A stretch of 64,000 nucleotides of DNA from Candidatus Campbellbacteria bacterium GW2011_OD1_34_28 (GTDB lineage: Bacteria > Patescibacteriota > Minisyncoccia > Phycocordibacterales > UBA12079): the NCBI GenBank assembly GCA_001029775.1, contig CP011215.1, positions 426,303 to 490,302 of the forward strand, given 5' to 3'. Position 1 is the first letter of the stretch, and every line of letters begins with the position of its first letter. Below, piece after piece: positions 14,625-60,310 of the stretch. Under the pieces are notes generated by a model, which was not told the DNA's origin, did not search any database, and worked only from the letters and a program-made list of their open reading frames with translations. The translations under genes and the position numbers were made by a program.

Positions 14625-14765
14625 TCAATAGTAACGAAGACAAATGAACGACGTGGATTCCTGCCTGCCGTGTCGTTGCTTTTCTTTCAGAAAAGAGGCA
14701 GGTTTGGATATAATTTGTATTACCTGTCTGTCGGCAGGCAGGTTCGGATTATCTTTATAAAGAAA

Positions 14766-14800
14766 ATAAAAAAAGCGGAGACGAGAGTCTCCACTTTTTG
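14766..14800. terminator. Bidirectional intrinsic terminator (GGAGAC GAGA GTCTCC flanked by A-run and T-run)
   Basis: Perfect 6-bp stem with A9 upstream and T5 downstream; sits 3' of the minus-strand small gene 14820..15030 and 140 nt 3' of the giant gene. Confidence 0.7.
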
Positions 14801-14819
14801 CTGCCCGATGTGGCAGATG

Positions 14820-15030
14820 TTATTTTTTGGCCTTTTCGTTCATCATGGCAATGAATCTGGTCAGATCGAAACGGCTACAGTCGAGCTTTTCGCCGTTCTC
14901 GGAATTCATGATGGTCAATCCGCCATCAGGATTTTCTGCGATGCCAAGACAACAGTCTTTGCTACCGCAGGCGAACTCAAACTTCTTTCCGCCGATTACT
15001 TCTTTTCGTGTTTTCATGTTTTCGGGCATA
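14820..15030 (-). CDS. Small (70 aa) cysteine-containing hypothetical protein in a GC-elevated cassette with strong SD (GGAGGTGTGTT-ATG) and TTGACA-N17-TATACT promoter
   Basis: ATG at 15030..15028 preceded by GGAGGTG at optimal spacing; promoter gggaTTGACAat...TTATACT at ~15063-15095 on minus strand; terminator downstream; the ORF track's TTG-extended version 14820..15071 is probably too long. Confidence 0.6.
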
Positions 15031-15127
15031 ACACACCTCCACTGGTTGAATTGGGCTGAAATGATGTACAAAACTTCCGCCAGTATAATACAACAAACAT
15101 AGAATTGTCAATCCCACTCACAAAAAA

Positions 15128-15170
15128 ACAAAAACCCCAGTAGCCTTGCTACTGGGGTTTTTGTTTTTTT
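15128..15170. terminator. Bidirectional intrinsic terminator (CCCCAGTAGC CTTG CTACTGGGG + T-run) 3' of sortase gene
   Basis: 10-bp stem, A-run before and T-run after. Confidence 0.75.
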
Positions 15171-15173
15171 GGA

Positions 15174-19024: not shown

Positions 19025-19026
19025 AA

Positions 19027-19225: not shown

Positions 19226-19258
19226 AGAAAAGCCCCAACCGAAGTTGGGGCTTTTTCG
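19226..19258. terminator. Bidirectional intrinsic terminator GCCCCAAC CGAA GTTGGGGC + T5
   Basis: 8-bp GC-rich stem, T-run; 3' of minus-strand gene 19281..19625. Confidence 0.75.
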
Positions 19259-19280
19259 GATTGACCGCGGAGTCGTGCGG

Positions 19281-19625
19281 TTATCCGAGGACCGTGTAGG
19301 CGTCGATGTCGACGTTATTGGTCGAGAGAAAGTCCATGTAGTTCTGCGACAGAACGCCGGCTGCGAGGACGATGCTATCGGCCGAGCTCAGGCCGGCCGC
19401 ACACTTGTCCGGGTTGGCCGAGTTGAACGGGACCTGCTTGATCTTTCCATTGACGTTGATCAGGGCGATACCGGGCGATTTGACGTCGAGCTTGTCGCTG
19501 TGGAACACGATGGCTTTGGCCTTCGGGTTGTCCATGATACTGACCGTCTCCAGGGTTGCCGTGATTCCGAGCGCCACGATTGCCGTCATCACATTCAGGG
19601 GTTTGATCGTTTTCTTGCTGTCCAT
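19281..19625 (-). CDS. Small secreted hypothetical protein (114 aa, signal peptide) in ~58% GC cassette with SD GGAGG and gggaTTGACAat promoter
   Basis: ATG at 19625 preceded by ACGGAGGAAACGCC; hydrophobic N-terminus KPLNVMTAIVALGITATL; promoter TTGACA-N16-TAATAT at ~19690-19725 (minus); strong GC shift relative to flanks. Confidence 0.65.
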   Translation of the reverse strand: MDSKKTIKPLNVMTAIVALGITATLETVSIMDNPKAKAIVFHSDKLDVKSPGIALINVNGKIKQVPFNSANPDKCAAGLSSADSIVLAAGVLSQNYMDFLSTNNVDIDAYTVLG

Positions 19626-19735
19626 TGGCGTTTCCTCCGTAAAAAAAAGGGCTGTTTGCACTGAGAATCAAGATGACTCAAAGCACGTTGACTGACAAAC
19701 ATATTAACAGACTAAAAAATATTGTCAATCCCAAC

Positions 19736-21660: not shown

Positions 21661-21810
21661 ATAGTATCCTATTTTGTATTCAATTGTCAAAACATATGTA
21701 AGGTGTCCGATACCTTACATTTGGTTTGATTGACTTTGGATTAAATAAAAGTATTATTTTTTTAGAACAGTCTTCGTTGTTATCTTATAAAAATATGAAA
21801 AGGAGTGTGT

Positions 21811-22212
21811 ATGTCGGGAATACAGTTAGTACTTGGCATTTCAAAAGAAAATATACTTTTTGCACATTCATCATTTACTGCTCTTCAAATTACGGTTTAT
21901 GCAAGTTCCTTTATTGATTTTTCAGGCGGTGGTGGAAAAAACAAACTTCGCCTGTTGGCGAGAAGACACGCAGATGCTTTAGCAGAGCAGTCTGAAAATC
22001 CTCGTCCGGCGATTTGTGTTTTTTTGTATGAAAAAACATCCATTGTCGTTTGGAATGGTTTCAGCGTGATTGCTTCTTTGCCAGCTGAAAGTTTTGGGCA
22101 TTTGTGGGTACCACCAGCAAAGCATGTCATTACCAGTATTGGCGATAATATGCCTTTAAACGGAGACGATCTTGATTCTTTTCTACATTTTTTTCGCAAA
22201 TATCTTGTATAA
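21811..22212 (+). CDS. Hypothetical protein (133 aa) with own promoter (TTGACT-N16-TATTAT), strong SD (AAGGAGTGTGT-ATG) and hairpin terminator; weak HIT-like GHLWVPP motif
   Basis: SD at 21801..21806; terminator CTGTCACACAG...CTGTGTGGCAG T5 at ~22223..22255; moderately GC-elevated. Confidence 0.55.
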   Translation: MSGIQLVLGISKENILFAHSSFTALQITVYASSFIDFSGGGGKNKLRLLARRHADALAEQSENPRPAICVFLYEKTSIVVWNGFSVIASLPAESFGHLWVPPAKHVITSIGDNMPLNGDDLDSFLHFFRKYLV

Positions 22213-22272
22213 AGCAACTGTCACACAGGCTCAATCTGTGTGGCAGTTTTTAATTGTGGTATTATCATAAAT

Positions 22273-23184: not shown

Positions 23185-23189
23185 TAAAA

Positions 23190-23222
23190 CCCGAACCGTG
23201 TATAACCAGTTCGGGTTTTTGT
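23190..23222. terminator. Bidirectional intrinsic terminator AACCCGAAC...GTTCGGGTT + T5 between miaA and converging gene
   Basis: Inverted repeat with T-run. Confidence 0.7.
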
Positions 23223-23564
23223 TTAAGGATGTGAGACTTCCATTCGAAAACCGTGCCCTTCTTTAATATTTACAATTTTCATATGGTGACAAAGGCAAAG
23301 CATCTTGCGCAAGCTATTTCCCTCATCTTTGCAAATTTTAAAAGTGAATTCTTTTGATGAAATTTGAAAAGCAATTTCTTCATCTCTGATTCTTATTTCC
23401 GCATCTTTTTTGTAATAAAGGACAGGAAATGAATCACAAAAATTTTCGACATCGGGTCCTTTTCCGATTACAACCAGTCCATATATTTCGTGACTGTCTG
23501 ATCGGAGAATTTCAAACAAAATTTGCTCTTGGGACATATTTTCTACAACTGTTGTTTTGTTCAT
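23223..23564 (-). CDS. Hypothetical protein (113 aa) with SD GGAGGAG
   Basis: ATG at 23564 preceded by GTGGGAGGAGAA; ORF track gives longer 23223..23624. Confidence 0.5.
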   Translation of the reverse strand: MNKTTVVENMSQEQILFEILRSDSHEIYGLVVIGKGPDVENFCDSFPVLYYKKDAEIRIRDEEIAFQISSKEFTFKICKDEGNSLRKMLCLCHHMKIVNIKEGHGFRMEVSHP

Positions 23565-23694
23565 TTCTCCTCCCACAAAGAAAGAATGAAAGATAAAGAC
23601 AATTTCTGATGTTATTCTATACATTTTTTTGTTTATAGCAAGTCCTTTTTAAAAGTGTTAGAATTTAATAAATTAAAAGATAAGATTTTATAAA

Positions 23695-25239: not shown

Positions 25240-25263
25240 TGAATAGTTTGTAGTGAGTAGAAA

Positions 25264-32917: not shown

Positions 32918-33298
32918 ATGAGAATTTTAGGAATAACAATACCAGACGAAAAGAGATTAGAGATAGGGTTAACAGCCCTTTTTGGTGTTGGTAGATCTCG
33001 TGCTCAAAAAGTTTTGGATAAAGCAAAGATTGATCACGGAAAAAAAGCAAAAGATCTTTCAGTAGATGAAGAAAACAAAATCAGAGAGATCCTAGAATCA
33101 TACAAAATAGAAGGTGATTTAAAAAGAGAAGTTTCAGGAAATGTTAAAAGACTGAAAGATATCATGTCATACAGAGGTTCAAGACACGCAAAGAAATTAC
33201 CTGTTCACGGACAATCTACAAAAACAAATTCAAGAACAGTTAGAGGAAATGTTAGAAAGACTATGGGATCGGGTAGAACAAAAGTAGACAAAAAATAA
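32918..33298 (+). CDS. rpsM: 30S ribosomal protein S13
   Basis: MRILGITIPDEKRLEIGLTALFGVGRSRA signature. Confidence 0.95.
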   Translation: MRILGITIPDEKRLEIGLTALFGVGRSRAQKVLDKAKIDHGKKAKDLSVDEENKIREILESYKIEGDLKREVSGNVKRLKDIMSYRGSRHAKKLPVHGQSTKTNSRTVRGNVRKTMGSGRTKVDKK

Positions 33299-33375
33299 TA
33301 ATTCCAAAATTGACGACCTTTGCTTTCATTTTTAAAAAAAAATGAAAGCGAATCTCATTCAATTTTGAAATTATT
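33299..33375. mobile_element. MITE-like element, short copy C (ATTCCAAAATTGACG...TTCAATTTTGAAAT)
   Basis: ~75 bp near-perfect hairpin with the same termini as the longer copies, immediately after rpsM stop. Confidence 0.6.
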
Positions 33376-33402
33376 TGAATTTTAATAAAATTAAAATCAA
33401 TT

Positions 33403-33837
33403 ATGGGAAAAAAGAGAGTAGTTAAAAAAACAGGTGGTGAGAAAGCGTCTGGAACAAAGACGGCTTCTAAAGTTTCAAAGAAGAGATTTGCTTCGGGTAC
33501 TTTGCATATCCAATCAACATACAACAACACAAGAGTTTCTTTGACTGACAAAGACGGAAACTTGCTAGCATCTTCTTCTTGTGGAGCATTGGGATTTAAA
33601 GGAGCAAAGAAAGGAACACCATTTGCTGCAGCAAAGGCTGGAGAATTGATTGGTGATAAGGCATTAAATGTTGGAATCAAAGAGGTAAATGTTATCGTAA
33701 AGGGAGTAGGTGCTGGAAGAGAATCAGCTATCAGAGGTTTTTTGTCTACAAGCGGAAATGCAGAATTATCAGCTATTAAAGATGTTACTCCGGTTCCTCA
33801 CAATGGTCCAAAGCCAAAGAAACCAAGAAGAGTCTAA
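33403..33837 (+). CDS. rpsK: 30S ribosomal protein S11
   Basis: GTLHIQSTYNNTRVSLTDKDGN...GFKGAKKGTPFAA signature. Confidence 0.95.
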   Translation: MGKKRVVKKTGGEKASGTKTASKVSKKRFASGTLHIQSTYNNTRVSLTDKDGNLLASSSCGALGFKGAKKGTPFAAAKAGELIGDKALNVGIKEVNVIVKGVGAGRESAIRGFLSTSGNAELSAIKDVTPVPHNGPKPKKPRRV

Positions 33838-33859
33838 AAACTAATAACTACTAACTAAT

Positions 33860-34468
33860 ATGAGCAGAATCAAAAAATATAAAATAGGAAGAAGATTAGG
33901 CGCTGGGGTTTATGAACAATGTCAAACCCAGAAGTTTGCTTTGTCTGAACAAAAAAGAGGCGGAGGAAAAAGAATGACAAAAAGAAAACAAGTTTCAGAT
34001 TATGGAGCTCAGTTGATTGAAAAACAAAAAGTTAGATTTTCATACGGAATAAGAGAAAAGCAGTTGCAAAAATATGTTAAAGATGCGATGTCCAGAAAAG
34101 GAAGTCACGCGGATCACTTGTTTGAAGTTGTTGAAATGAGACTTGATAATACTGTGTACAGATTGGGCTTGGCAGAAACAAGAGCAAAGGCAAGACAAAT
34201 GGTTTCTCATGGTCATATTACAGTAAACGGAAAAAGATTAAATATCCCTTCATACAAAGTTTCTGCAGGAGAAATTGTTGGTATCAGAGCACAAAGTCAA
34301 AACAAAGGTTTGTTTGAGAATTTGGAAGAAAAGATAAAAGATACAAAAACTCCAAATTGGTTATCATTTGACATTAAAAAGAAGGAAGGAAAAGTTGTTG
34401 GAGTTCCAAAAATTGGAACAGCCGAATTCTTTGATTTAGCAGCCGTTTTTGAATACTATAGCCGATAG
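33860..34468 (+). CDS. rpsD: 30S ribosomal protein S4
   Basis: S4 domain RLDNTVYRLGLAETRAKARQMVSHGHITVNGKRLNIPSY. Confidence 0.95.
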   Translation: MSRIKKYKIGRRLGAGVYEQCQTQKFALSEQKRGGGKRMTKRKQVSDYGAQLIEKQKVRFSYGIREKQLQKYVKDAMSRKGSHADHLFEVVEMRLDNTVYRLGLAETRAKARQMVSHGHITVNGKRLNIPSYKVSAGEIVGIRAQSQNKGLFENLEEKIKDTKTPNWLSFDIKKKEGKVVGVPKIGTAEFFDLAAVFEYYSR

Positions 34469-34546
34469 TAGTGGATAGACTATTGCAAACTTGCAAAAAA
34501 TGTAGTATATTTTTATCAATTTTATTAAGTTTTTATTTTTTTCTCT

Positions 34547-35512
34547 ATGTCTGACTACAATATTTTAGTGCCTTCAAAGCCAAGGGTAGTTGAAGATGGC
34601 CAATTTAAAGGCGTATACGAAATAGACGGTCTTTATCCTGGATATGGATATACGCTAGGTAATTCTTTGAGAAGAATTATTTTGTCGTCTCTGCCTGGTG
34701 CTGCAATAACATCGGTTAAAATTGCTGGTGTTGATCACGAGTTTTCTACTATTAGTGGTGTAAAAGAAGATGTTATTAACATCATTTTAAATTTAAAGAA
34801 AGTAAGAATCAAATTGCTTACAGACGAACCTCAAGAAATTAGATTGAAGGTTAAGGGTGTTAAAGATGTAACAGCAAAAGATATAGAAATTCCAGGACAA
34901 GCAGAAATTCTTAATCCTGATCAGCATATTGCTTCTGTCACAGACAAAAATACAACACTTGAAATCAGTATGATCGTTGTAAAAGGTTTGGGATATATTC
35001 CAAAAGAAGAATTGCAAAAAGATAAAGTTGAAATTGGTTCAATCGCTTTGGACGCATACTTTACTCCTATCAGAAGAGTAAGTTATGAAGTTGAAAATAT
35101 GCGTGTTGGAGACAGAACAGACTTTAACAGATTGAGAATCTTTATTGAAACAGACGGAATGATAACAGCAAAAGAAGCTTTGGAAAATTCTATTGATATA
35201 ATGATAAGACAACTAAAAGCAATCGTTGGATTCAAAGAAGAAGAGGTTGTTGAAGAAAAACAAGAAGATAGCTCAGAAGATAAAGAAGATTCAAAAGACT
35301 CAGAAGATACAGAATTTTTGAAGACAAGAGTTGAAACTTTGGATCTATCAGCAAGAACAATGAATGCACTTGATTCAGCAAACATCAGAACAGTCGGAGG
35401 GTTGGCAAGAAAGAAAGAAGAAGATTTGTTAGCAATTGACGGATTGGGAGGAAAAGGTTTGCAAGAAATCAAAAGAGCATTAAGCAATTTTGGAATCACA
35501 CTAAAGAGTTAA
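34547..35512 (+). CDS. rpoA: DNA-directed RNA polymerase subunit alpha
   Basis: N-terminal dimerisation domain and C-terminal domain LDLSARTMNALDSANIRTVGGL. Confidence 0.95.
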   Translation: MSDYNILVPSKPRVVEDGQFKGVYEIDGLYPGYGYTLGNSLRRIILSSLPGAAITSVKIAGVDHEFSTISGVKEDVINIILNLKKVRIKLLTDEPQEIRLKVKGVKDVTAKDIEIPGQAEILNPDQHIASVTDKNTTLEISMIVVKGLGYIPKEELQKDKVEIGSIALDAYFTPIRRVSYEVENMRVGDRTDFNRLRIFIETDGMITAKEALENSIDIMIRQLKAIVGFKEEEVVEEKQEDSSEDKEDSKDSEDTEFLKTRVETLDLSARTMNALDSANIRTVGGLARKKEEDLLAIDGLGGKGLQEIKRALSNFGITLKS

Positions 35513-35549
35513 AAAGTTTGTAAAGTTAAAAGTTTGTAAAGACAGAAAC

Positions 35550-35906
35550 ATGAAACATCATAATTCAACAAGAAAATTAGGAAGAGTAAGTAAGCAAAGA
35601 ACAGCTTTGTTAAGGTCTTTGGCTATCTCATTTATTATTCACGGAAAGATAAAAACAACTACCGCAAAGGCTAAAGAATTGAGACCTTTCGTTGAAAAAA
35701 TAATTACAAAAGGAAAAACAGATTCTGTTGCTTCAAAAAGATTGGTTCTATCAAAATTGGGTAGTGGGGGGGATGAAGCAATGAAAGAGGTTTTTGAAAA
35801 AATTTCACCAAAATATAAAGAAAGAGAAGGCGGTTATACAAGAATCGTAAAAGTAGCAAGCAGAGTGGGGGATGGGAGTCAGATGTCAATTATTGAGTTT
35901 GTATAA
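35550..35906 (+). CDS. rplQ: 50S ribosomal protein L17
   Basis: MKHHNSTRKLGRVSKQRTALLRSLAISFIIHGKIKTT signature. Confidence 0.93.
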   Translation: MKHHNSTRKLGRVSKQRTALLRSLAISFIIHGKIKTTTAKAKELRPFVEKIITKGKTDSVASKRLVLSKLGSGGDEAMKEVFEKISPKYKEREGGYTRIVKVASRVGDGSQMSIIEFV

Positions 35907-36035
35907 AAAATTCCAAAATTGACGCATAACATCGTCGTCTTCACAAAAATTTTCTTCGCCTTATGTTGAATAAGGCTCAAAAAATTTTTGTTTGACTCCT
36001 TGTTCTGCATTCAATTTTGAAATTTTTTGTTGTTG
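35907..36035. mobile_element. MITE-like element, copy D
   Basis: TIR TTCCAAAATTGACGCA / TGCATTCAATTTTGAAA; internal ATAACATCGTCG...CTCCTTGTTCTG; starts at first base after rplQ stop. Confidence 0.7.
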
Positions 36036-36122
36036 CAATTAGTTAAAAAAGAGTTATAATTCAGGAGTCAAAAAAAGTTTAAAAATACTAAAAACTAATG
36101 ACTAAAAACTAAAAACTTATTT

Positions 36123-36467
36123 ATGGAGTACACAATCGATGCAAAAGGAAAAAAATTGGGAAGAATCGCAACTGAAGCGGCAACTTTGCTTATGGGAAAA
36201 AATTCACCCGATTTCAGTAGAAACACAGTAGCCGATGTAAAAGTAAATATCACCAACGCATCAAAATTGGATGCTGATGCAAAAAAAATGGATACAAAAC
36301 TTTACAATAGATACACAGGTTTTCCAGGAGGTTTGAGAACAGACAAAATGTCAAAAATCGTTGAGAAAAAAGGAATGGGAGAAATAATTAAAAAGGCTGT
36401 TCATGGAATGTTGCCTTCAAACAAGTTAAGAGCAATTATGATGAAAAATCTGATAATCAACGAATAA
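36123..36467 (+). CDS. rplM: 50S ribosomal protein L13
   Basis: Position before rpsI and characteristic KLGRIATEAATLLMGK N-terminus. Confidence 0.88.
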   Translation: MEYTIDAKGKKLGRIATEAATLLMGKNSPDFSRNTVADVKVNITNASKLDADAKKMDTKLYNRYTGFPGGLRTDKMSKIVEKKGMGEIIKKAVHGMLPSNKLRAIMMKNLIINE

Positions 36468-36473
36468 TAAATT

Positions 36474-36887
36474 ATGGTAAAAGACACAAACAAAAATAAA
36501 TATTACGAAGCTGTAGGAAGAAGAAAAACTGCTACTGCAAGAGTAAGACTAACAGAAGCCAAAGCAAATTCTTTTGTTATTAACAAAGACAAAGATTGCG
36601 ATTCTTATTTTGATACAAAAGAGTTGAGAGATATCGCACATGACGCTTTGATAAAATCAGAAGTTGCTACAAAATTTTCAGTTTCAGCCTTGATAAATGG
36701 AGGCGGAATCAATGGACAGGCAGAAGCCCTAAGACACGGAATTTCAAGAGCGCTTGTAAAATTTGATGAAAGTTCAAGAGGTAAATTGAAAAAAGAAGGT
36801 TTTCTAAAAAGAGATTCAAGAATGAAAGAAAGAAAGAAGCCGGGATTGAAGAAGGCTAGAAAAGCTCCTCAATGGTCAAAAAGATAA
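36474..36887 (+). CDS. rpsI: 30S ribosomal protein S9
   Basis: YYEAVGRRKTATARVRL...GGGINGQAEALRHGISRAL...KKARKAPQWSKR. Confidence 0.95.
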   Translation: MVKDTNKNKYYEAVGRRKTATARVRLTEAKANSFVINKDKDCDSYFDTKELRDIAHDALIKSEVATKFSVSALINGGGINGQAEALRHGISRALVKFDESSRGKLKKEGFLKRDSRMKERKKPGLKKARKAPQWSKR

Positions 36888-36925: not shown

Positions 36926-37026
36926 TCTTTTTGACCACAAGTAGTAAGGTATAAGGTATAAGGTGTAAGTAGACGAGAAATTTGAAACAAAAAAACCGCG
37001 CCTTGGGGGGCGCGGTTTGAAATGAG

Positions 37027-37237
37027 TTAATCAGGGATTTTGATAAACTCAGGGGTATTTTTTACCCCAAGCTCTGCCAGTTTGGCGAGAGCCTGCGGTA
37101 TTGAGATATTTTCCTTTTGAGCCAGCCTCAGCATTACTTGACTGGTGTGTTTGGGGAAGTGAATTATTTCTCCACAAATGGGAATGCTCACCTTTCGCAC
37201 ATCGTCTAATGGCAAATCTATCTTGTCTTCCGCCATC
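37027..37237 (-). CDS. Small hypothetical protein (70 aa) with SD GGAGG, TTGACA-N17-TAAAGT promoter and bidirectional terminator CCGCGCC...GGCGCGG
   Basis: ATG at 37237 preceded by TTGGAGGAAAATACG; terminator at ~36993..37018; GC-elevated relative to flanks. Confidence 0.55.
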
Positions 37238-37391
37238 GTATTTTCCTCCAAAATTTTTATAAGAGATAGAACATTTTGTCTTTGTAAACTTTATAAGTTT
37301 TTATACTATCTGTCAAGTTTTTTTAAACCCGAAATTTTGGTATGATTGGTGTGTTCGTTTACAAATTTTGTAAAAAAATCTATTTAAAAAT

Positions 37392-43657: not shown

Positions 43658-43715
43658 TAAAAACTATTCTAGTATTCTCAAGAATACCAGAATAGTTTTT
43701 ATTTTGTTTACATTT
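43658..43715 (+). terminator. Long hairpin terminator (CTATTCTAGTATTC..GAATACCAGAATAG + T5ATTTT)
   Basis: 14-bp stem after gene 42949..43614. Confidence 0.65.
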
Positions 43716-43790
43716 GCTTGCACCCTCGTTGTTTTTTTTGCTAAATTCTATTTGGAAATAACAATTAAAATTCATTTCGGAGGAGTTTTA

Positions 43791-44096
43791 ATGAAGAAAG
43801 ATCTTAAAAGGATTGCGGGAGCGTTTTTTCAAGGTGTTTTCTGGTGGTTTTTGTTTTTGAAAAAATTTCGATCAATAGATTATAGAGATGAACATTACAG
43901 AGATTATGTTCGCGCGTCTTTATTAAAAGGAATCTTGTTTCCTTTAATTATGGCGATTGTAATGAATTTTGCATACCAATTAAATATTTGGAATTGCGTT
44001 TTAACTCTTCTGTATTTTCATTTGGTTATTGGTCTTGCTGAAATAATTCATCTTCGACTCGAATGGAACGGTTTCCGTGAATTGCCTATTGGATAA
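43791..44096 (+). CDS. Small membrane protein (101 aa, 3 TM) with SD GGAGGAG
   Basis: ATG at 43791 preceded by TTCGGAGGAGTTTTA; hydrophobic helices; terminator AAAAAACGACC TTTG GGTCGTTTTTTT at ~44100..44128. Confidence 0.55.
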   Translation: MKKDLKRIAGAFFQGVFWWFLFLKKFRSIDYRDEHYRDYVRASLLKGILFPLIMAIVMNFAYQLNIWNCVLTLLYFHLVIGLAEIIHLRLEWNGFRELPIG

Positions 44097-44251
44097 TACA
44101 AAAAACGACCTTTGGGTCGTTTTTTTAAAAAGTTGTTTGTTTGGGTAACCAACTTTTATTAGATTAGACTTTTTGATTGTTTTTTGCTTTAATGGTTTTT
44201 AGAAATAGCTTTAATTTAGTTTTTTTAGACTATTGAAAACAAGGAGGTTCG

Positions 44252-44412
44252 GTGAAAACAATCAAAGGTGGTATCGCTGATTTGAAAGGAATTAAATATA
44301 TTTTAAATCCAGAAACATCTTTTGTTTCATTTTCGGCAGACAACAAAGACCTTGTATCAATTTCTAATAAAAAAATTTTACGAAGGAGAAAATTGGGAAG
44401 GAGAGTACGATG
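44252..44412 (+). CDS. Small basic peptide (52 aa, GTG start, C-terminal RRRKLGRRVR) with SD AAGGAGG, stop overlapping next gene start (ATGA)
   Basis: SD at 44241..44247; translational coupling geometry with 44410..44727. Confidence 0.4.
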
Positions 44413-44727
44413 AAAGAAAAAATTACTTTAAAAAGAATTGTGGCATCTTTTGTTGCAGGATTGTTGTGGGGAGTCTTTCTTTTTCAGGATATCTCCAAAG
44501 GAGATTCTGGTTATGAGTATGAAGGGACAGGAATTCTTTTTGTTTCAATTGGTTTTTGCTGTTTGTTTTTTGTACCGATAATTATTTCATCTTCTTTTCA
44601 GATTGAAATTTACAAATTGATTTTGGCAGGCGTTGCTGCGTATCTCATTATTGGACTTGTCGCTATTTCAGAAATGCGACACCGATGGGGAGGTAGTGAC
44701 AGAATAACTTTTATGCCTAATGTGTAA
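44410..44727 (+). CDS. Small membrane protein (105 aa, 3 TM) with SD GGAAGGAG
   Basis: ATG at 44410; hydrophobic helices; terminator follows. Confidence 0.6.
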   Translation: MKEKITLKRIVASFVAGLLWGVFLFQDISKGDSGYEYEGTGILFVSIGFCCLFFVPIIISSSFQIEIYKLILAGVAAYLIIGLVAISEMRHRWGGSDRITFMPNV

Positions 44728-44737
44728 ATCAAAAGCC

Positions 44738-44775
44738 CAGTTTGGATGTCCGACATCCAAACTGGGCTTTTTGCT
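44738..44775. terminator. Bidirectional terminator GCCCAGTTTGGATGTC CGA CATCCAAACTGGGC flanked by A4/T5
   Basis: 16-bp perfect stem between converging genes. Confidence 0.8.
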
Positions 44776-49706: not shown

Positions 49707-49937
49707 TTATATGATCAAAGCTATAAAAGCTGAAGCTACAAAAAGAATAGCAAGAGTAACTGTGATATAAAAGAAAATCTTTTCTGCGCCTCTTCTTGTG
49801 TGTCTTGCAGAAAAATTGTCTCCACCACCAAAAGCACCTCCCAAGTCATTACCAGTTTGTTGAATCAAAATGGCTGCTACAAGGAGAACAGCTAGTGTTA
49901 TCTGTATAAAAGGAAGTATATTAGTTAAATTTTCCAT
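49707..49937 (-). CDS. secG: Preprotein translocase subunit SecG
   Basis: Two TM helices separated by glycine-rich GNDLGGAFGGGDNF loop; leaderless-type TATAAT 8 nt before ATG. Confidence 0.8.
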   Translation of the reverse strand: MENLTNILPFIQITLAVLLVAAILIQQTGNDLGGAFGGGDNFSARHTRRGAEKIFFYITVTLAILFVASAFIALII

Positions 49938-50183
49938 CCCCAGAATTATAGCAAGAAGACTTAAAAAAGCAATAGAAGTCCTAAAAGTTTATAAAGTTTG
50001 TAAAGTTCATAAAGTCCGTAAAGTTATGTATGTAATCAGAGTCGAGCCTCGAGAAATAGGGAATTAAACTTTTAAAATAAAGGATTTTTTAGCATTGACA
50101 AAGATGTTGTATTATACTATAATAATAAAAGAATAAGGGTTGGCTATGGGAGGCTGGCTCAAAAAAGAAAGAGGGTAAAAAAA

Positions 50184-50300
50184 ATGATGTACACAACGAA
50201 GATGTTGGAGATTATCTCCACCTTGACTGAAGTAGATGAGGCTGCTGCCGTAGCGATGTTGCTCGGAGACCTCGAAGAGTCTGAGATCAGTTTCGACTGA
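50184..50300 (+). CDS. Micro-ORF (38 codons, acidic peptide MMYTTKMLEIISTLTEVDEAAAVAMLLGDLEESEISFD) with promoter TTGACA-N17-TATAAT and GAGGG SD, followed by terminator
   Basis: Promoter at ~50096..50125; GC-elevated codons; terminator ATCCCCCGAG CTTCGG CTCTGGGGGAT T4ATTT at 50313..50346; speculative. Confidence 0.3.
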   Translation: MMYTTKMLEIISTLTEVDEAAAVAMLLGDLEESEISFD

Positions 50301-50378
50301 TCTCGCAATTTAATCCCCCGAGCTTCGGCTCTGGGGGATTTTTATTTACCCGAGGTCGGACCTCGGGTAAATAAAAAG

Positions 50379-50420: not shown

Positions 50421-50469
50421 TTACTTATTCCTCACCCCTTACTCCTTAACCCTTAACCCTTAACCCTTA

Positions 50470-52689: not shown

Positions 52690-52831
52690 AGTTAGACAAA
52701 GTATAACAGATGTAGAAAAAAAGCAAGCGCAGGTATTGACAAATATTTATTTTATTATAGTATATTGGCAGGATTCAACGGCGTTTGTGCTGTTGAGAAA
52801 TTAAAATTTTTAGGTTTTAGGAGGTGTTCGT

Positions 52832-53992
52832 ATGGCAAAGTCACTGGTAGGAATTCAGACATTGGAGTCTCTCGCTGGCTGGAAAATGATCGCCGAGAGG
52901 ACTAACGAGACCGAGGAGACTGTCCAGACCGGTCAGACCAAACCCGCAGAGTTCCGGATTTATCGGAACGATGACTTGGGGGTCGAGATTCATGTCCGGC
53001 GTTCGCTGGTCAAGGAAGGACTCGATTTCCTGCCTGGGATGGTAAAGGATGTCGAGACAGGAAAAGACCTGTGGAGTTTTTTTCAGGAGCAGTCCAAAGG
53101 ACTCGGACACCTGCTCGCCATTAACGGCGAGGTGGTCATCGGCCTGGAGGAGTGGGGCGATCTGAAGAAGGTCATCCCCGTCGCCGATCTGCGCAAGCAG
53201 AAGACCGTCGTCGTTGATGGCGTGTCCAAAATTGTCGGTGGTCGTGGCGTTCTCGCTACGGTCGATCTCAAACACTCGGTTGCCGAGGCGCTTTCTACCG
53301 ATCAGGGCAGGAGCATCAAGGCCAACATCACCGACGCCGAGCGCGCGGTGATGAGAAAACTTTCTGATGCCCGCAAGGCCAGTGAGGAGCGTGAGCGATT
53401 GGCACGGGAAACCGCGCGTCGCGAGCGGATCGCCAAGATCAAGAGCCGGCAACAGATTTCCGGCATGGTCGTGGAGAACGGCAGGGGTTCGCGTTGGGCG
53501 ATTCCTGTCACAGAAGACGAATGGATGTCTTTTGGGACCGACGACGGCATGGTTGCCATCGTTGCCGGTTTCGGTGAAGACGGCAAGCCCATCGTTCCCG
53601 AAGACGGAGTGGTGGAGGCATTTTTCATTCAGTATCGCAAGGGCGGTGGTGGACGGCCGGAGAAGAAGGCACAGGTGAAAATCCGTCTTCGTGGCTACGA
53701 ACAGGCCGAGCCCGTGAAGGAAGCATCCGTCTCCGCACCGACGCTCGTCAAACTGGAAACCGTCTTTATCGAGGTTTCCAAGGATCAGGCGAAATCCCTC
53801 GGCATCGATTCCGGATTTCAGGAAGTCAGTCTTACGGATGCAGAGGGGATTTCCACTCTGCGGAAGGCAGGTCTCAACAGCGGTGCGCTCGTCGCGATCT
53901 CCGCCACCGACGGATCCGATCGGATTCAGGTGGAGAAGTTCGTTGACGGCCAGACGCAGACCTTGGGCCTCTTTAATCCGATCACGATGTGA
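52832..53992 (+). CDS. Hypothetical protein (386 aa) in ~58% GC cassette with TTGACA promoter, AGGAGGTG SD and hairpin terminator; two globular halves joined by basic coiled-coil (ERERLARETARRERIAKIKSRQQ)
   Basis: SD 52817..52824; promoter gtaTTGACAaat...TAGTAT at ~52762..52795; terminator CCCGTCGTTGC...GCAACGACGGG T6 at 54013..54062. Confidence 0.7.
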   Translation: MAKSLVGIQTLESLAGWKMIAERTNETEETVQTGQTKPAEFRIYRNDDLGVEIHVRRSLVKEGLDFLPGMVKDVETGKDLWSFFQEQSKGLGHLLAINGEVVIGLEEWGDLKKVIPVADLRKQKTVVVDGVSKIVGGRGVLATVDLKHSVAEALSTDQGRSIKANITDAERAVMRKLSDARKASEERERLARETARRERIAKIKSRQQISGMVVENGRGSRWAIPVTEDEWMSFGTDDGMVAIVAGFGEDGKPIVPEDGVVEAFFIQYRKGGGGRPEKKAQVKIRLRGYEQAEPVKEASVSAPTLVKLETVFIEVSKDQAKSLGIDSGFQEVSLTDAEGISTLRKAGLNSGALVAISATDGSDRIQVEKFVDGQTQTLGLFNPITM

Positions 53993-54146
53993 TCTGGACT
54001 AACGGCCCAAACCCGTCGTTGCATGTTGGATCCCTCCAATATTCGCAACGACGGGTTTTTTAATTGTATTGACATCTTTGTTATTTTAAATAGTATTTAG
54101 GTAGGATTTTATAGATTCTTTACTTTAATTTAAGAGGAGGTGTTAT

Positions 54147-54362
54147 ATGCCAGCAACAGAAAAAGATTGGAGAAATTGGCAAGATATCAATGGTAATTCG
54201 GAAGGACTAAGTCCAACCGAATTAATGAACATTCGTTATCGTCACGGCAGAGCCGAGGCTGTAAGGGCAATCACCTGTCCACCGGGGAGAGACCCTCAGA
54301 CATGGGAAGATCAGATTCAAAATTTTTTGGTGTCCAAGGAATTCGGACATCGCGTTCATTAA
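54147..54362 (+). CDS. Small hypothetical protein (71 aa) with GAGGAGGTG SD, own TTGACA-N16-TAGTAT promoter and terminator GGCGGAGTGTC ACAA GACACTCCGCC T7
   Basis: SD at 54133..54141; promoter at ~54071..54099; terminator 54376..54408. Confidence 0.6.
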   Translation: MPATEKDWRNWQDINGNSEGLSPTELMNIRYRHGRAEAVRAITCPPGRDPQTWEDQIQNFLVSKEFGHRVH

Positions 54363-54494
54363 GGGGGGATAGGCGGAGTGTCACAAGACACTCCGCCTAT
54401 TTTTTTGTGTATATTTCAATAATTCAGTATGTTATTATTTAAACTATATTTTAGTTTGTAGTGGGTAGTTTTTAGTGAGTAGTAATTATTTTTT

Positions 54495-56738: not shown

Positions 56739-56819
56739 GAGCACTTTGTCTCGTATAAACTCCTCAGCTCAGCAGACCTAAAAGATTTATCTTTTAGGTC
56801 TGCTTTCACTTTACGTCGT

Positions 56820-56948
56820 TTATAATTCCAAAATTAAAGAATTTCTTCGTCGACTAAGAAAAAAACTTCCTCATCGTAATCGTATTTAAAATACGACTCG
56901 GAAGTTTTTTTCTTGTCTTCTCGAACTTCATTTAATTTTGGAATTATT
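56820..56948. mobile_element. MITE-like element, copy E (near-perfect 130 bp hairpin, centre CGTATTTAAAATACG)
   Basis: TIR ATTCCAAAATTAAAGAATTTCTTCGTCG / CTCGAACTTCATTTAATTTTGGAAT; arms complementary over ~45 bp. Confidence 0.7.
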
Positions 56949-56962
56949 TTTTTGTTCGTGAG

Positions 56963-58975
56963 TTAGTTTACGATTTCAAAATCAATCGTCCTTTTTTCCA
57001 AATCAACACCTATCAATTTTATTTTTACTTTGTCGCCCAATGTGTATTTTTTTCCACTGCGTTCTCCAACAATACGATAATTTTTTGGATCAATATTATA
57101 GTGATCATCTTTCAATGTTCTAACACTTACCAATCCTTCGGCTTTTGTTTTTTGATCTTGAACATATACACCCCAATCAACAACGCTGGTTATCATACCT
57201 TCAAACTCTTCTCCAACCAGCTTTGACATATATTCAGCATATTTGTATTTTACAGAATCTCTTTCTGCTTCCATTGCAGAAATTTCTTGTGTGGTAGAAA
57301 TGGCCGACAATTCTTCAAATCGTCCAATTTCTTTTTCGGAAACTTCTTCACCCGCCAAATATCTTTTTAACAAACGATGTACCATTACATCTGGGTATCT
57401 TCGGATAGGGGAAGTAAAGTGTGTATAAAATTTGAAAGCCAAACCATAGTGTCCAATATTTTTTGTGCTGTAAATTGCTTTTGCCATTGATCGAACAACT
57501 ACTTTGGCGATCAGATCTTCTTCATCGGTTCCTCTTATTTCATCCAACAAATCGTTTAAATCTTGTGAATCAACATTTCCGTTTCCGTCTGTCTTCAAAG
57601 AGTATCCAATTTTTTTTAAATACTCTGTAAGCTCTTTTATTGCATCCGGTTTTGGTTTGTCGTGAATTCTATAAACAAAAGGCTTGTTTTTTCCTAGTCT
57701 GTTCACATATTCGGTAACCTCTCTGTTTGCAAGAAGCATAAAATCTTCAATCAATTCGTTTGTTTCCAATGTCTCTTTTTCGTAAATCTCTATAGGAAAA
57801 CCTTTTTCGTCCAATTTAAATTTTACTTCGCTTCCTCCAAAAGATATTGCTCCGTTTTTTGTTCTTCTCTTTCTTTTTATCAAAGCCATTTTGTTCAGGG
57901 TATTCAATTCATTATAAAAAAGACCTTCTCCTTTGTTTAAAATTTCTTGTGCTTCAATATAATTAAATCTTTTATCCGAATTTATGATTGTTTCTCCAAA
58001 CCACCTGTTTAGTACTTCACATTTATCATTCAATATAAAGATAGCCGAAAAAGCCAGCTTGTCTTCGTTTGGATTAAGAGAACACAAATCATTTGAGAGA
58101 ACCTCGGGAAGCATTGGAATTGTTCTGTCCACCAAATAAATAGAAGTGGCTCTTTTTACAGCTTCTTGATCAATTGGACTACCTTCTCTCACATAGTGAG
58201 AAACATCGGCGATGTGTATTCCGACTTCGTATGTTCCGTCTCCCAGATCTTTGAAAGACAATGCATCATCAAAATCTTTGGCGTCAAAAGGGTCAATTGT
58301 AAAAGTTGTTGTGTTCCTAAAATCCCAACTAGAAATTGGTCCATCAGGGCGAGAGATTCTTCTTTTCATTTCTTCTTCAAAATCTGCTTTTGCATTTTTT
58401 TTGATTATTTCTGCTTCTTTCTCAACTTCAGGAGGGAAAGAAGGGACAAATCCTTTTTCATAAATAATAGATTCCATTTCTGTGTTGTGATCTCCTTTTT
58501 CTCCAAGAACTTTTGTTACTTCTCCTTGCAGGTTGATCCAATCTTTTATTTTGACAAGAACTTTTTGATTTGATTTTATATTTTTTGTTTCTTCGTTTGG
58601 AAGAATAAAAATAGCTTTGTATATTTTTCTATCGTCTGGTTGGAAAGAGATTATTCCATTGTCATTTAAAATAGTACCAACAAATTGCTCGCGGTTTCTT
58701 CTGATGATTGATTTTACTGATCCCTTTATACGGCCTTCGCTTTTTTTGTTACTAATAGAAAATTGGACGATATCTCTGTTTAATGCAGTGTTTAAATCGC
58801 TTGTTGGTATTTTGATATCCTCGGCGAACTTTTCTGTTCTAATATATCCGTCCCCCTTGGCACTAATCAAAATTTGACCCTCAAATATTTCTGACGAGAA
58901 TTTTTCTTTTATGTTAGATTTTTTTCTAGGGCGAAAATTTGAATCTTTGTTTCTTTTGTGTTTTTTATTTTTCAT
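56963..58975 (-). CDS. rnr: Ribonuclease R (RNB family 3'-5' exoribonuclease) with basic N-terminus and C-terminal S1 domain
   Basis: RNB domain motifs (DPFDAKDFDDALS, HFTSPIRRYPD) and S1 domain; start placed at MKNKKHK (ORF-track start 58993). Confidence 0.88.
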   Translation of the reverse strand: MKNKKHKRNKDSNFRPRKKSNIKEKFSSEIFEGQILISAKGDGYIRTEKFAEDIKIPTSDLNTALNRDIVQFSISNKKSEGRIKGSVKSIIRRNREQFVGTILNDNGIISFQPDDRKIYKAIFILPNEETKNIKSNQKVLVKIKDWINLQGEVTKVLGEKGDHNTEMESIIYEKGFVPSFPPEVEKEAEIIKKNAKADFEEEMKRRISRPDGPISSWDFRNTTTFTIDPFDAKDFDDALSFKDLGDGTYEVGIHIADVSHYVREGSPIDQEAVKRATSIYLVDRTIPMLPEVLSNDLCSLNPNEDKLAFSAIFILNDKCEVLNRWFGETIINSDKRFNYIEAQEILNKGEGLFYNELNTLNKMALIKRKRRTKNGAISFGGSEVKFKLDEKGFPIEIYEKETLETNELIEDFMLLANREVTEYVNRLGKNKPFVYRIHDKPKPDAIKELTEYLKKIGYSLKTDGNGNVDSQDLNDLLDEIRGTDEEDLIAKVVVRSMAKAIYSTKNIGHYGLAFKFYTHFTSPIRRYPDVMVHRLLKRYLAGEEVSEKEIGRFEELSAISTTQEISAMEAERDSVKYKYAEYMSKLVGEEFEGMITSVVDWGVYVQDQKTKAEGLVSVRTLKDDHYNIDPKNYRIVGERSGKKYTLGDKVKIKLIGVDLEKRTIDFEIVN

Positions 58976-59132
58976 TTTTATAAATAGTAACATTTTTTAT
59001 TATTTTAGGATATTTTAGAAACTTGATAATTTCAATAGGGCAGTATTCTAAGGGCTTGACAAGTAGGTCTATTTTTTGATATGGTTTTTATAGGAAATTC
59101 TTTTCATTTTCAATAACAAAGGAGGTAACGAG

Positions 59133-60197
59133 ATGAAAAAGAGAATTATTCTCTTAGTTTTGTTGGGTCTTTTTTCGGTTTCTACAGCAATGGCGAGTAC
59201 ATTGGTGGTGGAGCAGATTACTCAGCCGTTGAGTGGTCTCGCACCGGAAGGAGCGACGAGGATCCCTTTCTCAAAAGTGCGTTTTCGTGCACAGGACGGC
59301 AAGGTCGCCCTTTATGGCGTCTATGTTGAGAAAACGGGAATGGCCGGACAGGTCTTCTCTGGAGTTGCATTACTTCGTAATGGGGTTCAAATGGGAACGA
59401 CCGTCACCAGTTTTGGTGCGGACAATCGGGCAATGTTAATGGCAGATTCACCGTTTGAAATCGCCGACGGTTCCTCTTACGACTTAACTGTCGTGGGGAA
59501 TATGCGCGACGATTTGTCGGGAGATGATGGTAAAACCATCGGTATTGCCATCGTCGGTGTCTGGACGACAGCGACTGTGCAGGGTTTTGTTCTAATCGAA
59601 GGAACTCACCGGACGGCGAGTTCCGACTATGTCATTGGCGCTGTCAACGCAACAGCTGGTGAGGACAATCCGTCAGCTGGATCAACTGCTTACCCCGGAG
59701 AGACAAAAATTTTCTCTTCGGTAAGTTTGATCGCTTCGTCCGTTGAGGACGAGGTTCTCAAATCAGTGATGGTGAAGGCGTCGGGGAACGCAACCAAAAG
59801 TGATTACAACAGTGTGGTGCTTTTGGTCGGTGGGACAAACTATCCGATGACTGTTTTGCCGGACGGCAGGTACTACGCAGGCGGGATCAATAAAACCATC
59901 ACGAACACCGCTAAAACGAAAGTATCGATTTCTGCAAATGTGGTCGGAGGCGTTGGTAAAACAATCGCCTTTGATATCGTAGAATCAACTGATGTTGAAT
60001 TGGCCGGTGCAATTACCGGATTCGGTACAACGCCGATCGGATCAGGACCTTCGTTCGGTTCGTTCCCTTGGTTCAAGGGAACGACGACGAGCATCGTTCA
60101 GGCACCAACACCGCCTCCTCCTTTACCACCACCGACTGCGAAACAACGCAAGGCGGCAGCAATGACGGCCATTCGGTCGCTGTTGCAGGACAAGTAG
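59133..60197 (+). CDS. Secreted hypothetical protein (354 aa; signal peptide, two related beta-rich domains, PTPPPPLPPPT C-terminal linker) in ~55% GC cassette with AAGGAGGT SD and 20-bp hairpin terminator
   Basis: SD 59119..59126; signal peptide MKKRIILLVLLGLFSVSTAMAS; terminator AAGAGCAGATTTTGTGCG..CGCACAAAATCTGCTCTT at 60201..60246. Confidence 0.65.
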   Translation: MKKRIILLVLLGLFSVSTAMASTLVVEQITQPLSGLAPEGATRIPFSKVRFRAQDGKVALYGVYVEKTGMAGQVFSGVALLRNGVQMGTTVTSFGADNRAMLMADSPFEIADGSSYDLTVVGNMRDDLSGDDGKTIGIAIVGVWTTATVQGFVLIEGTHRTASSDYVIGAVNATAGEDNPSAGSTAYPGETKIFSSVSLIASSVEDEVLKSVMVKASGNATKSDYNSVVLLVGGTNYPMTVLPDGRYYAGGINKTITNTAKTKVSISANVVGGVGKTIAFDIVESTDVELAGAITGFGTTPIGSGPSFGSFPWFKGTTTSIVQAPTPPPPLPPPTAKQRKAAAMTAIRSLLQDK

Positions 60198-60310
60198 CAA
60201 AGAGCAGATTTTGTGCGTACGCGCACAAAATCTGCTCTTTTTTGTTTGTTAAAAATACTTTAAACAAAAAAAAGTAATGTGGATAACTTGTTTTGTAATG
60301 TGTCTTCTAG

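Follow-up and report, generated by a model that had tools for sequence, protein, structure and literature searches.

Shine-Dalgarno-less core genes and Shine-Dalgarno-led accessory units in a Candidatus Campbellbacteria chromosome segment: a case for two expression regimes split by gene class

Why should a small bacterial chromosome leave its housekeeping genes without a Shine-Dalgarno (SD) sequence and place a strong one in front of a particular minority of genes? The question is raised by a stretch of 64,000 nucleotides from Candidatus Campbellbacteria bacterium GW2011_OD1_34_28 (contig CP011215.1, positions 426,303 to 490,302), in the following called the window, which is a piece of a small chromosome of the Parcubacteria (Candidate Phyla Radiation, CPR) with 34-36% GC. 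A first-pass annotation, made from the letters alone, had separated SD-less conserved genes from 12 small or unknown open reading frames (ORFs) with an SD of their own. It had read the latter mainly as acquired, individually packaged genes, and alternatively as a sign of two distinct initiation modes. Here, the 12 flagged ORFs are labelled cassettes C1-C12, and the core class comprises 37 complete genes. We consider it somewhat better than an even chance (about 0.55) that the window displays two stable expression regimes split by gene class, possibly with foreign origins. The sample consists of the 64 kb and its flanks, and the class split is known from this stretch rather than from the whole genome. 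For comparison 111 loci were fetched, which are cited by L-numbers (L082-L111) where they have to be told apart.

SD strength was scored as the duplex energy that the 25 nt preceding a start codon would form with the anti-SD 5'-ACCUCCUUA-3'. By this measure the cassettes reach -9.1 to -13.3 kcal/mol, C9 (-6.3) excepted, while the core genes lie between +1.9 and -4.3 kcal/mol (Mann-Whitney p = 3e-7). The sole core outlier is plsC with -6.8, where a GGAAGG inside dnaJ is too distant from the start, and none of the 37 core genes sampled in the 64 kb has a usable SD, just as the first-pass annotation had stated. The split is sharp and bimodal, and an intermediate class is absent. The motif GGAGG occurs 13 times between genes, compared to 2.9 +/- 1.7 times in shuffled sequences, and nine of these occurrences are located 5-9 nt before a cassette start. 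Unbiased scans for an SD-led start that opens a frame of 30 aa or more yielded no extra intergenic case, and the remaining matches are found inside genes, at Gly-Gly codons. A canonical GGAGG had been claimed for all 12 cassettes; it is exact in nine, while C3 and C8 carry AAGGAG and C9 a weak AGAGGG. The SD class thus defined makes up 12 of about 50 genes (~24%). Possession of an SD coincides with the lack of a Pfam hit (Fisher p = 1e-9) and with a GC content of at least 0.44 (7 of 12 cassettes, 0 of 37 core genes; p = 9e-6). The region around the start codon (-30 to +30) is also more structured in the cassettes, with a median minimum free energy of -7.25 kcal/mol against -3.1 kcal/mol in the core (p = 4e-4).

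Beyond the SD, the signals listed in Table 1 support the view of the 12 ORFs as individually packaged expression units, each with a predicted promoter, leader, SD, ORF and terminator. By sequence match, a TTGACA-type promoter is located 47-75 nt upstream of 8 or 9 of the 12 cassettes. The consensus -35 box, which had been described as usual, is exact in seven of them and nearly so in C3 (TTGACT); the promoters of C4 and C6 are of the TTGCTA or TGCTAAAT type, and C7 and C8 form one overlapping pair. The GC-rich two-way terminators were confirmed by the same kind of match after 11 of the 12 ORFs, each with a strong hairpin (~8-20 paired bases) and a T-run, usually preceded by an A-tract. C7 has no terminator of its own and uses that of C8. 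All 12 cassettes do lie in intergenic slots between core genes, and for C1, C5 and C7 the earlier coordinates were off by 1-2 nt and are corrected in Table 1. The pattern extends past the window: a 13th unit, situated just upstream of it and before rpoB (L105 ~2100-2600), is GC-rich, encodes ~95 aa, and shows an SD AAGGAGGT and its own promoter TTTACA-N17-TATAAT.

Table 1. Cassette units with their predicted signals, core examples and further features, in window positions.
Feature	Position	Strand	ORF or product	Promoter	SD	Terminator	Composition and remarks
C1 unit	14770..15111	-	15029-14820, 69 aa	TTGACA-N18-TATACT, 15111-15082	GGAGG, 15036-15040	14799-14770	GC 0.45
C2 unit	19228..19728	-	19625-19281, 114 aa	TTGACA-N16-TAATAT, 19728-19701	GGAGG, 19634-19638	19255-19228	GC 0.57, GC3 0.83
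C3 unit	21730..22248	+	21811-22212, 133 aa	TTGACT-N16-TATTAT, 21730-21757	AAGGAG, 21800-21805	22216-22248	host-like GC 0.39
C4 unit	23186..23641	-	23564-23223, 113 aa	promoter-like TTGCTA-N16-TAGAAT, 23641-23614	GGGAGGAG, 23567-23574	23219-23186	GC 0.34
C5 unit	36989..37316	-	37236-37027, 69 aa	TTGACA-N17-TAAAGT, -35 box 37316-37311	GGAGG, 37245-37249	37018-36989	GC 0.44
C6 unit	43707..44126	+	43791-44096, 101 aa	promoter-like TTTACA...TGCTAAAT, 43707-43747	GGAGGAG, 43779-43785	44100-44126	GC 0.32
C7-C8 pair	44243..44771	+	C7 44252-44413, 53 aa, GTG start; C8 44410-44727, 105 aa		C7 AAGGAGG, 44241-44247; C8 AAGGAG, 44398-44403	44731-44771	ATGA overlap
C9 unit	50095..50343	+	50184-50300, 38 aa	perfect TTGACA-N17-TATAAT, 50095-50123	weak AGAGGG	50313-50343	GC 0.48; 60-nt leader
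C10 unit	52736..54061	+	52832-53992, 386 aa	TTGACA-N16-TAGTAT, 52736-52763	AGGAGGT, 52819-52825	54009-54061	GC 0.57, GC3 0.68
C11 unit	54069..54406	+	54147-54362, 71 aa	TTGACA-N16-TAGTAT, 54069-54096	GAGGAGGT, 54133-54140	54363-54406	GC 0.45
C12 unit	59056..60240	+	59133-60197, 354 aa	TTGACA-N18-TATGGT with TG, 59056-59085	AAGGAGGT, 59119-59126	60199-60240	GC 0.51; Pro-rich tail
rpsM, rpsK, rpsD, rpoA, rplQ, rplM, rpsI	32918..36887	+	SD-less core example				GC3 0.20-0.31
secG	49707..49937	-	leaderless-looking core gene	box CTTGCTATAAT ends 7 nt before ATG
thrS	19776-21521		threonyl-tRNA synthetase
thrS leader	21555-21720	-	reduced T-box-like element	TTGACA		20-bp	contains GGGTGGAACCGCG
pepMA	42949-43614		Peptidase_MA-like				GC 0.27
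Giant surface protein gene	4722-14624		3300 aa
MITE-like repeats	14625-14770; 19025-19185; 25985-26140; 35900-36035; 56815-56955						~125-150 nt, palindromic
macB-alaS gap, tandem units	27443-27581; 27584-27761		candidate small RNA genes				~115-140 nt
Spacers with degenerate tandem repeats	36930-36960; 49985-50030; 50440-50475; 25235-25263; 54465-54494; 29615-29650
Long shadow ORFs	19245-19664; 14670-15059	+	opposite strand of GC-rich cassettes

The observation of seven sharply GC-rich cassettes was borne out. C1, C2, C5 and C9-C12 have a GC content of 0.44-0.57 compared to 0.34 in the flanking genome, and no core gene reaches 0.44. Only the ORF and the terminator stem take part in this rise, the promoter and leader regions being AT-rich. 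Codon usage in these seven is foreign-looking: arginine is encoded by CGN 36 times and by AGR 13 times (core: 116 and 469), ATA accounts for only 3 of 75 isoleucine codons, and endings in C or G are preferred in every four-fold box.

The starts of the core class are of a different kind, for which the stretch from rpsM to rpsI gives an example: upstream regions are AT-rich and G-poor, and an SD is absent. In the core class as a whole, G amounts to about 10% or less at the majority of positions between -20 and -1 (maximum 21%) and A to ~60% at -3 and -4. A T is found at -1 in 70% of the 33 starts scored, compared to ~35% in the background, which may represent a lineage-specific start context. 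In about 8-10 core genes only 7-10 nt separate the ATG from the end of a -10 box, which often reads TGnTATAAT. This geometry is seen in dnaG, secG, topA, the MFS transporter gene, dnaJ, hyp404 and rnr, and at corrected starts also in alaS (ATG 27815) and miaA (ATG 22273). It is plausible that these mRNAs are leaderless, bearing in mind that -10-like hexamers are common in AT-rich DNA. The earlier statement that many core genes look leaderless holds to this extent, but dnaK, sortase, Ig763 and thrS have -35/-10 promoters and leaders of 50-140 nt and still no SD. Leaderless mRNAs alone thus do not explain the lack of SDs in the core. Many spacers, often just upstream of SD-less core genes, also contain short degenerate tandem repeats (GTAAGGTATAAGG, AAGTTTATAAAGTTTGTAAAG, CCTTAACCCTTAACCC, AGTAGTGAGTAG and CTTTCTACTTTCTAC).

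If the cassettes had been acquired recently as mobile units inserted into intergenic DNA, as the preferred interpretation of the first-pass annotation may be taken to mean, they should be missing from the same locus in close relatives. This is not what we observe. Other species of Campbellbacteria hold C1-C4, C6-C8 and C10-C12, ten cassettes in all, in syntenic positions. The gene order topA-C10-C11-SMC-rnr-C12-mraZ is kept in L084, L110/L087 and L111, and the L085/L091 lineage holds in the same slots a C12 of 53% identity, a C10 homologue of 28% and two C11 paralogues. In detail, L084, L110 and L111 each have a C10 orthologue in the syntenic position (85-97% identity); C11 has an orthologue (88%) in L084, the paralogues in L085 showing 47% and 37%; and C12 has syntenic orthologues with 53-91% identity in L084, L087, L111 and L085. 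L108, with a threonyl-tRNA synthetase (ThrRS) that is 88% identical, carries in synteny a C1 homologue of 72 aa that is SD-led (49% identity, N-terminal part), a C2 orthologue (77%) with SD AAGGAGGT and a GC content at third codon positions (GC3) of 0.82, as well as C3 (37%) and C4 (31%). C6-C8 are syntenic in L090 and L091, where the C6 orthologue is 77% identical. Core proteins are 93-99% and cassettes 84-97% identical in L084, L087, L110 and L111; the respective values for L085, L091 and L108 are 65-94% and 28-77%.

Among the window, L084 and the PHX25 genome, distances calculated from C10-C12 split three ways just as those of the core genes do, which argues for vertical descent. The ratio of nonsynonymous to synonymous substitution rates (dN/dS) is 0.09-0.14 for C10-C12 (singly, C10 0.14, C11 0.09 and C12 0.13-0.21), 0.20 for C2, and 0.35-0.41 for C1, C6 and C8, compared to 0-0.17 in the core. 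The cassettes tested are protein-coding genes under purifying selection that evolve faster than the core. Their expression signals are kept as well. The cassette homologues scored in relatives retain the SD and the raised GC, the GC-rich ones checked being C1, C2 and C10-C12. In leader alignments of C2 and C12 both promoter boxes (-35 and -10) and the SD stand out as conserved islands amid a diverged leader, although synonymous sites of the core are near saturation (dS 1.0-1.5). Promoter and SD of C12 are kept in all syntenic orthologues aligned.

Autonomous packaging and atypical composition, as well as the exchange of the C9 body and the presence or absence of pepMA and C6 between 97%-identical strains, would suit recent mobility. 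Nevertheless, at least 10 of the 12 units have syntenic orthologues in species with a core synonymous divergence of 0.2-1.4, and C10-C12 follow the core pattern of distances. No integrase, transposase, attC-like sites, target-site repeats or phage genes were found with the cassettes, no ORF scanned holds an integrase domain, and no repeat family is common to the cassettes except a promoter box TGGGATTGACAAT of C1 and C2. This interpretation is largely refuted, and we regard it as very unlikely. What stands of it is the packaging, the restriction to the lineage, the foreign-looking codons of seven units and some flux. Synteny together with host-like composition in relatives had been named as evidence against it; synteny was found, yet the GC-rich orthologues keep their GC and their SD. 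The two initiation modes are thus the better-supported half of the earlier alternatives, and they are compatible with an ancient foreign origin.

A more trivial explanation would be an artefact, with GC-rich patches arising from assembly chimeras or with ORFs that are non-coding. The genome is indeed metagenome-assembled, and C9 comprises only 38 aa in a body that is not conserved. However, several species show the arrangement, and independent assemblies from NCBI, ENA, JGI and Logan repeat it. Copies identical to the window ThrRS are present, in unchanged gene order, in GCA_000990865.1 (LBQN01000002.1) and in groundwater assemblies of ENA and JGI. Values of dN/dS well below 1 for C2 and C10-C12 point in the same direction, and a frame of 386 codons at 57% GC, with GC3 exceeding the GC content of the first two codon positions, is no chance ORF. 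We consider an artefact hardly credible.

Are the GC-rich codons then a fading relic? On this explanation, the cassettes are ancient horizontal acquisitions that still ameliorate, and SD, promoter and codon usage are neutral leftovers that nothing maintains. The foreign-looking codon usage of the seven GC-rich cassettes agrees with it, and so does a narrow phyletic distribution: in a word-indexed search of 5.8 billion proteins, C10 has only 5 and C12 only 4 close homologues, from Campbellbacteria-like genomes. Slot turnover in the deeper relatives L109 and L085 is a further point in its favour. Polarised substitutions in the shallow clade show an excess of GC->AT over AT->GC in C10-C12 (231 vs 134; core: 279 vs 375). 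At third positions of C10-C12, however, 88 AT->GC changes are observed where ~48 are expected from the per-site rates of the core (~1.8x), which corresponds to a higher equilibrium GC3 of ~0.45 vs 0.34 (uncorrected). A second test, on four-fold degenerate sites, leans partly another way than the GC loss in C10-C12. Between window and L108, the strong/weak states of C2 are distributed 31/13/1, with 31/12.7/1.3 expected under independence; these sites are randomised, and yet their GC content (GC4) is 0.84 in the window and 0.82 in L108. Flanking core genes, with equally randomised sites, have a GC4 of 0.20-0.35. For C12 compared to L085 the four-fold sites are near-randomised and GC4 is 0.47 and 0.58. 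A rough decay arithmetic suggests that AT-biased neutral amelioration could not leave the GC3 of C2 and C12 even from an ancestor with 100% GC3. We conclude that GC-rich codon usage, at least in C2 and C12, is a maintained, stationary property and not a fading one, since both copies are GC-rich at essentially randomised sites. The conserved SD and promoter islands in diverged leaders, hence under selection, and the strong SDs of five cassettes with host-like GC disagree with neutral leftovers, too. Altogether, amelioration without maintenance appears unlikely to us. Candidates for what maintains the GC are GC-biased gene conversion, codon choice, and selection that acts on the stability or structure of the mRNA. 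As a caution, atypical GC is no proof of recent horizontal transfer, given that it is stationary in C2 and C12 across saturated synonymous divergence. In CPR loci from outside the Campbellbacteria, SD-led genes do not appear to be generally high in GC3 (median GC3 excess +0.02 with three outliers, by a noisy caller).

These observations, i.e., the dichotomy, its conservation across species, vertical inheritance under purifying selection, the structure at the start codons and the stationary GC of C2 and C12, form the basis for the two-regime reading, which we picture as follows. The first regime would serve the core, namely ribosomal proteins, aminoacyl-tRNA synthetases, chaperones, RNA polymerase subunits, cell-division genes and large surface proteins. 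Its starts would act without an SD, in G-poor and AT-rich upstream context and with a nearly unstructured start region, and many of its transcripts would probably be leaderless, driven by extended -10 promoters (TGnTATAAT) that abut the ATG. The second regime would comprise about one quarter of the genes, lineage-specific accessories that encode tiny proteins, small hydrophobic proteins and at least one envelope-related protein. Its unit would consist of a sigma-70 -35/-10 promoter, a leader of 40-65 nt, a canonical SD spaced 5-9 nt from the start codon, and the ORF with a two-way hairpin terminator behind it, and such units would mostly occupy slots between core genes singly, with C7-C8 as an overlapping pair. 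Judging from SD conservation only, translation would start here by pairing of SD and anti-SD. The genes of the second regime probably came from donors that were richer in GC and used SDs, and they would have reached the lineage before the sampled species diverged. Selection acting on the mRNA may since have preserved the SD, plus the GC-rich codons in seven of them. A likely reason is that the more structured start regions of the cassettes could not use the AT-rich or leaderless default route. Occasional recombination inside conserved shells would replace or remove ORFs.

Some points weigh against this reading. In about half of the Parcubacteria 16S genes no anti-SD motif has been detected (Tsurumaki et al. 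2022, PMC9297842), although canonical SDs that are conserved at the correct spacing argue that the ribosome of our organism still reads them. The genes for the giant 3300-aa protein, Ig763, sortase and hyp404 are lineage-specific but SD-less, and 'accessory' is therefore not always SD-led. Five cassettes (C3, C4, C6-C8) have host-like GC, and GC-richness does not define the class. Finally, the net GC loss in C10-C12 is not exactly an equilibrium and fits slow amelioration. Neither rRNA genes nor genes for bS21, bS18 or bS6 are present in the window, a search with conserved 16S/23S motifs was empty for all 111 fetched loci, and neither rplA (uL1) nor rRNA genes are found in 10 kb further upstream, through dnaG.

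The closest mechanistic precedent is provided by the Bacteroidia, whose ribosomal proteins bS21, bS18 and bS6 sequester the anti-SD and in which essentially rpsU keeps an SD (PMC7797042, PMC9976891, PMC13000453). As in Flavobacterium johnsoniae, housekeeping genes of the window are SD-less with A/T-rich, G-poor upstream regions, and a minority has a strong conserved SD. The resemblance ends at the SD class itself, which in the Bacteroidia is essentially rpsU plus the prfB frameshift site; SD genes here are not rare, they are accessory, and there is no ribosomal-protein autoregulation loop. Many core mRNAs here also look leaderless, and the organism belongs to the CPR. SD poverty as such is common to related CPR lineages. 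With one crude caller for SD-led ORFs of at least 100 aa, other CPR loci gave 6.4% (of 676) and Bacteroidota 2.4%, compared to 32% in SD-using controls; the caller is noisy. For the Parcubacteria, which include our organism, the reported loss of the anti-SD in a subgroup is a possible reason for an SD-less core. PMC9297842 is the only literature we found on leaderless genes or SD usage in this group, and SD-bearing gene subsets are not described there.

The Bacteroidia precedent suggests a stronger explanation, a dedicated SD-dependent regulon in which a sub-population or state of ribosomes exposes its anti-SD and envelope and small proteins are controlled in a condition-specific manner. The sharp bimodal split, the cross-species conservation of the SDs aligned and scored in relatives, and the SD poverty that related CPR loci share with Bacteroidota loci agree with it. 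The SD class of F. johnsoniae, however, is essentially one gene, whereas about 24% of the genes belong to it here, and leaderless, SD-less and SD-led starts coexist on one ribosome pool in many bacteria, which would suffice. A regulon of this kind strikes us as quite improbable. A related proposal of dual translation in Campbellbacteria and perhaps other Parcubacteria, in which default ribosomes ignore the SD or have no usable anti-SD and only a special ribosome state or special conditions allow a conserved set of SD-led GC-rich genes for envelope, membrane and small proteins to be read, is similarly doubtful. The same holds for its further elements, that codon usage would be held by selection and that the shells would be sockets for ORF exchange, as in C9.

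The two-regime reading leaves room for such exchange, which we observe at a few slots. In the 97%-identical L111, a segment of 1.36 kb (window 42896-44253; L111 951-1281) with pepMA, C6 and the upstream region of C7 is replaced by 330 nt, which are repeat-like and resemble the AGCTGATAGC repeats that the giant gene carries at its 5' end. In the same strain, the 38-aa body of C9 is exchanged for a peptide of 30 aa (L111 7255-7347), which is conserved in the more distant L110 as well: MS(T/L)QEKK.LL.QLRQMGL.EK.IMAIMK.A. The swap is ORF-precise, with promoter, 60-nt leader and terminator conserved around it, and it is a single case. A derivation of the window C9 from a rearranged or reverse-complemented ORF of L111 was rejected by eye. 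The C9 slot is empty in L091, while L109 (ThrRS 73% identical) lacks C4 and has an unrelated ORF in the thrS-miaA slot. Slow slot turnover accompanying two conserved expression regimes is the better description.

Architecturally, the closest precedent is the phage moron, an autonomous promoter-ORF-terminator unit with atypical GC that is inserted between conserved genes (PMC3594210). The cassettes are likewise single ORFs with their own predicted promoter (9 of 12) and terminator (11 of 12) between syntenic conserved genes, with some presence/absence and replacement among relatives. Composition agrees in part: it is atypical in seven of the 12 (GC 0.44-0.57 vs 0.34) and host-like in C3, C4 and C6-C8. 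Unlike in morons, the host DNA is a core-gene chromosome with ribosomal, synthetase, chaperone and cell-division genes as neighbours, there are no PHROG hits, and most units have a long history of vertical inheritance and are subject to purifying selection. Neither morons nor the Bacteroidia system are matched in all their defining features. Horizontal islets and ORFans share the restricted distribution, the atypical GC3 and codons, the faster protein evolution and the location between core genes. They differ from the cassettes in that GC is stationary in C2 and C12, mobility signatures are lacking and each gene has a full set of private expression signals. Absence from the same locus in close relatives, as for a recent islet, is seen in pepMA plus C6 only, the C9 body being the other variable item. 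Integron cassettes are promoterless, carry attC sites and are arrayed beside an integrase. The units described here resemble them as single ORFs and in the replacement of an ORF at one site (C9); in contrast, they have own promoters, are dispersed over 45 kb, and lack an integrase and any 3' repeat or attC-like family. SD-poor lineages, leaderless mRNAs and moron-like units are all known, and here they would occur combined and partitioned by gene class.

What do the SD-led units encode? None of C1-C12 has a match in Pfam, PHROGs or NCBIfam. C12 has a signal-peptide-like N-terminus and a core of ~300 aa, for which a profile search returned 418 proteins. These are mostly 1,150-1,250 aa long. Of six that were scanned, four have an N-terminal PG_binding_1 domain, and the only one with an organism name stems from Candidatus Terrybacteria. 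C12 thus probably belongs to a Parcubacteria family of cell-envelope proteins. AlphaFold2 models of C12 and C10, with a mean confidence (pLDDT) of 49.5 and 40.9, are too poor for use; the low-confidence model of C12 is mostly beta-strand. C2 has a hydrophobic segment at its N-terminus, C6 and C8 are probably paralogous hydrophobic membrane proteins, and C1, C5, C7, C9 and C11 are only 38-71 aa in length. In relatives, the SD-led and GC-richer class also holds a LysM+DPBB_1 protein and a ParB_N protein. From a biological point of view, the SD-led units mark a fast-evolving repertoire of envelope and small proteins and are a plausible place to seek genes for symbiont-host interaction. One small genome would then employ three modes of start (leaderless, SD-less with leader, and SD-led), split by class and conserved across species. 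This makes the purpose of SDs in SD-poor lineages testable in CPR bacteria, which are already known for an unusual translation apparatus.

The surrounding gene content is that of a core chromosome. Several window proteins have their closest named relatives in Candidatus Campbellbacteria, while the best ThrRS match in a set of species-level genomes is only 64% identical and belongs to a Paceibacterota genome. Almost all large ORFs can be named from their Pfam matches: rpoC, dnaG, rpoD, sortase, thrS, miaA, a MacAB-type transporter, alaS, infA, seven ribosomal proteins, rpoA, grpE-dnaK-dnaJ, plsC, trpS, an MFS transporter, RNase J, a solute-binding protein, secG, topA, an SMC-like ATPase, RNase R, mraZ and rsmH. 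ARAGORN finds no tRNA in the window, and the whole window has no Rfam match at gathering threshold. The giant surface protein is repeat-rich, with 21 GNVGIGTT-type repeats and Peptidase_S74 and Ig-like domains. It is missing in the related genome L108, where rpoD adjoins the C1 homologue.

Palindromic intergenic repeats that resemble miniature inverted-repeat transposable elements (MITEs) end in AATTCCAAAATT...AATTTTGAAATT and have an internal hairpin, some copies with a CCTGCCTGCCGGCAGGCAGG insert. The 56.8-kb copy is absent from the 97%-identical L111, and the element thus is or was mobile. Palindromes CCTGCCTGCC, considered as a mobile element borne by the cassettes, belong to this separate repeat, and the idea was rejected.

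Public gene calls place C2 (ENA assembly, L082) and its L108 homologue on the wrong strand, and several starts are extended. This is relevant for annotation, as gene callers misread the strand of two GC-rich cassettes and overextend starts; long shadow ORFs run opposite to GC-rich cassettes (Table 1).

A few elements may act as RNA. The T-box family has been described mainly from Firmicutes. The thrS leader resembles a reduced T-box and matches RF00230 with 45.4 bits (E = 3e-9), below the gathering score of 93, the match being cut by the range chosen. In the macB-alaS gap, two tandem paralogous units, each with its own promoter, share an identical terminator AACCCGCGGTTTTCCGCGGGTT and a common core GGGGATTGGCGTCCCTCG...GGATGCAACGCCCAACC; they match no Rfam family and are candidates for small RNA genes. 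In L105 (~1150-1480), a putative GC-rich non-coding RNA of ~230 nt, promoter-driven and on the minus strand, follows rpsP.

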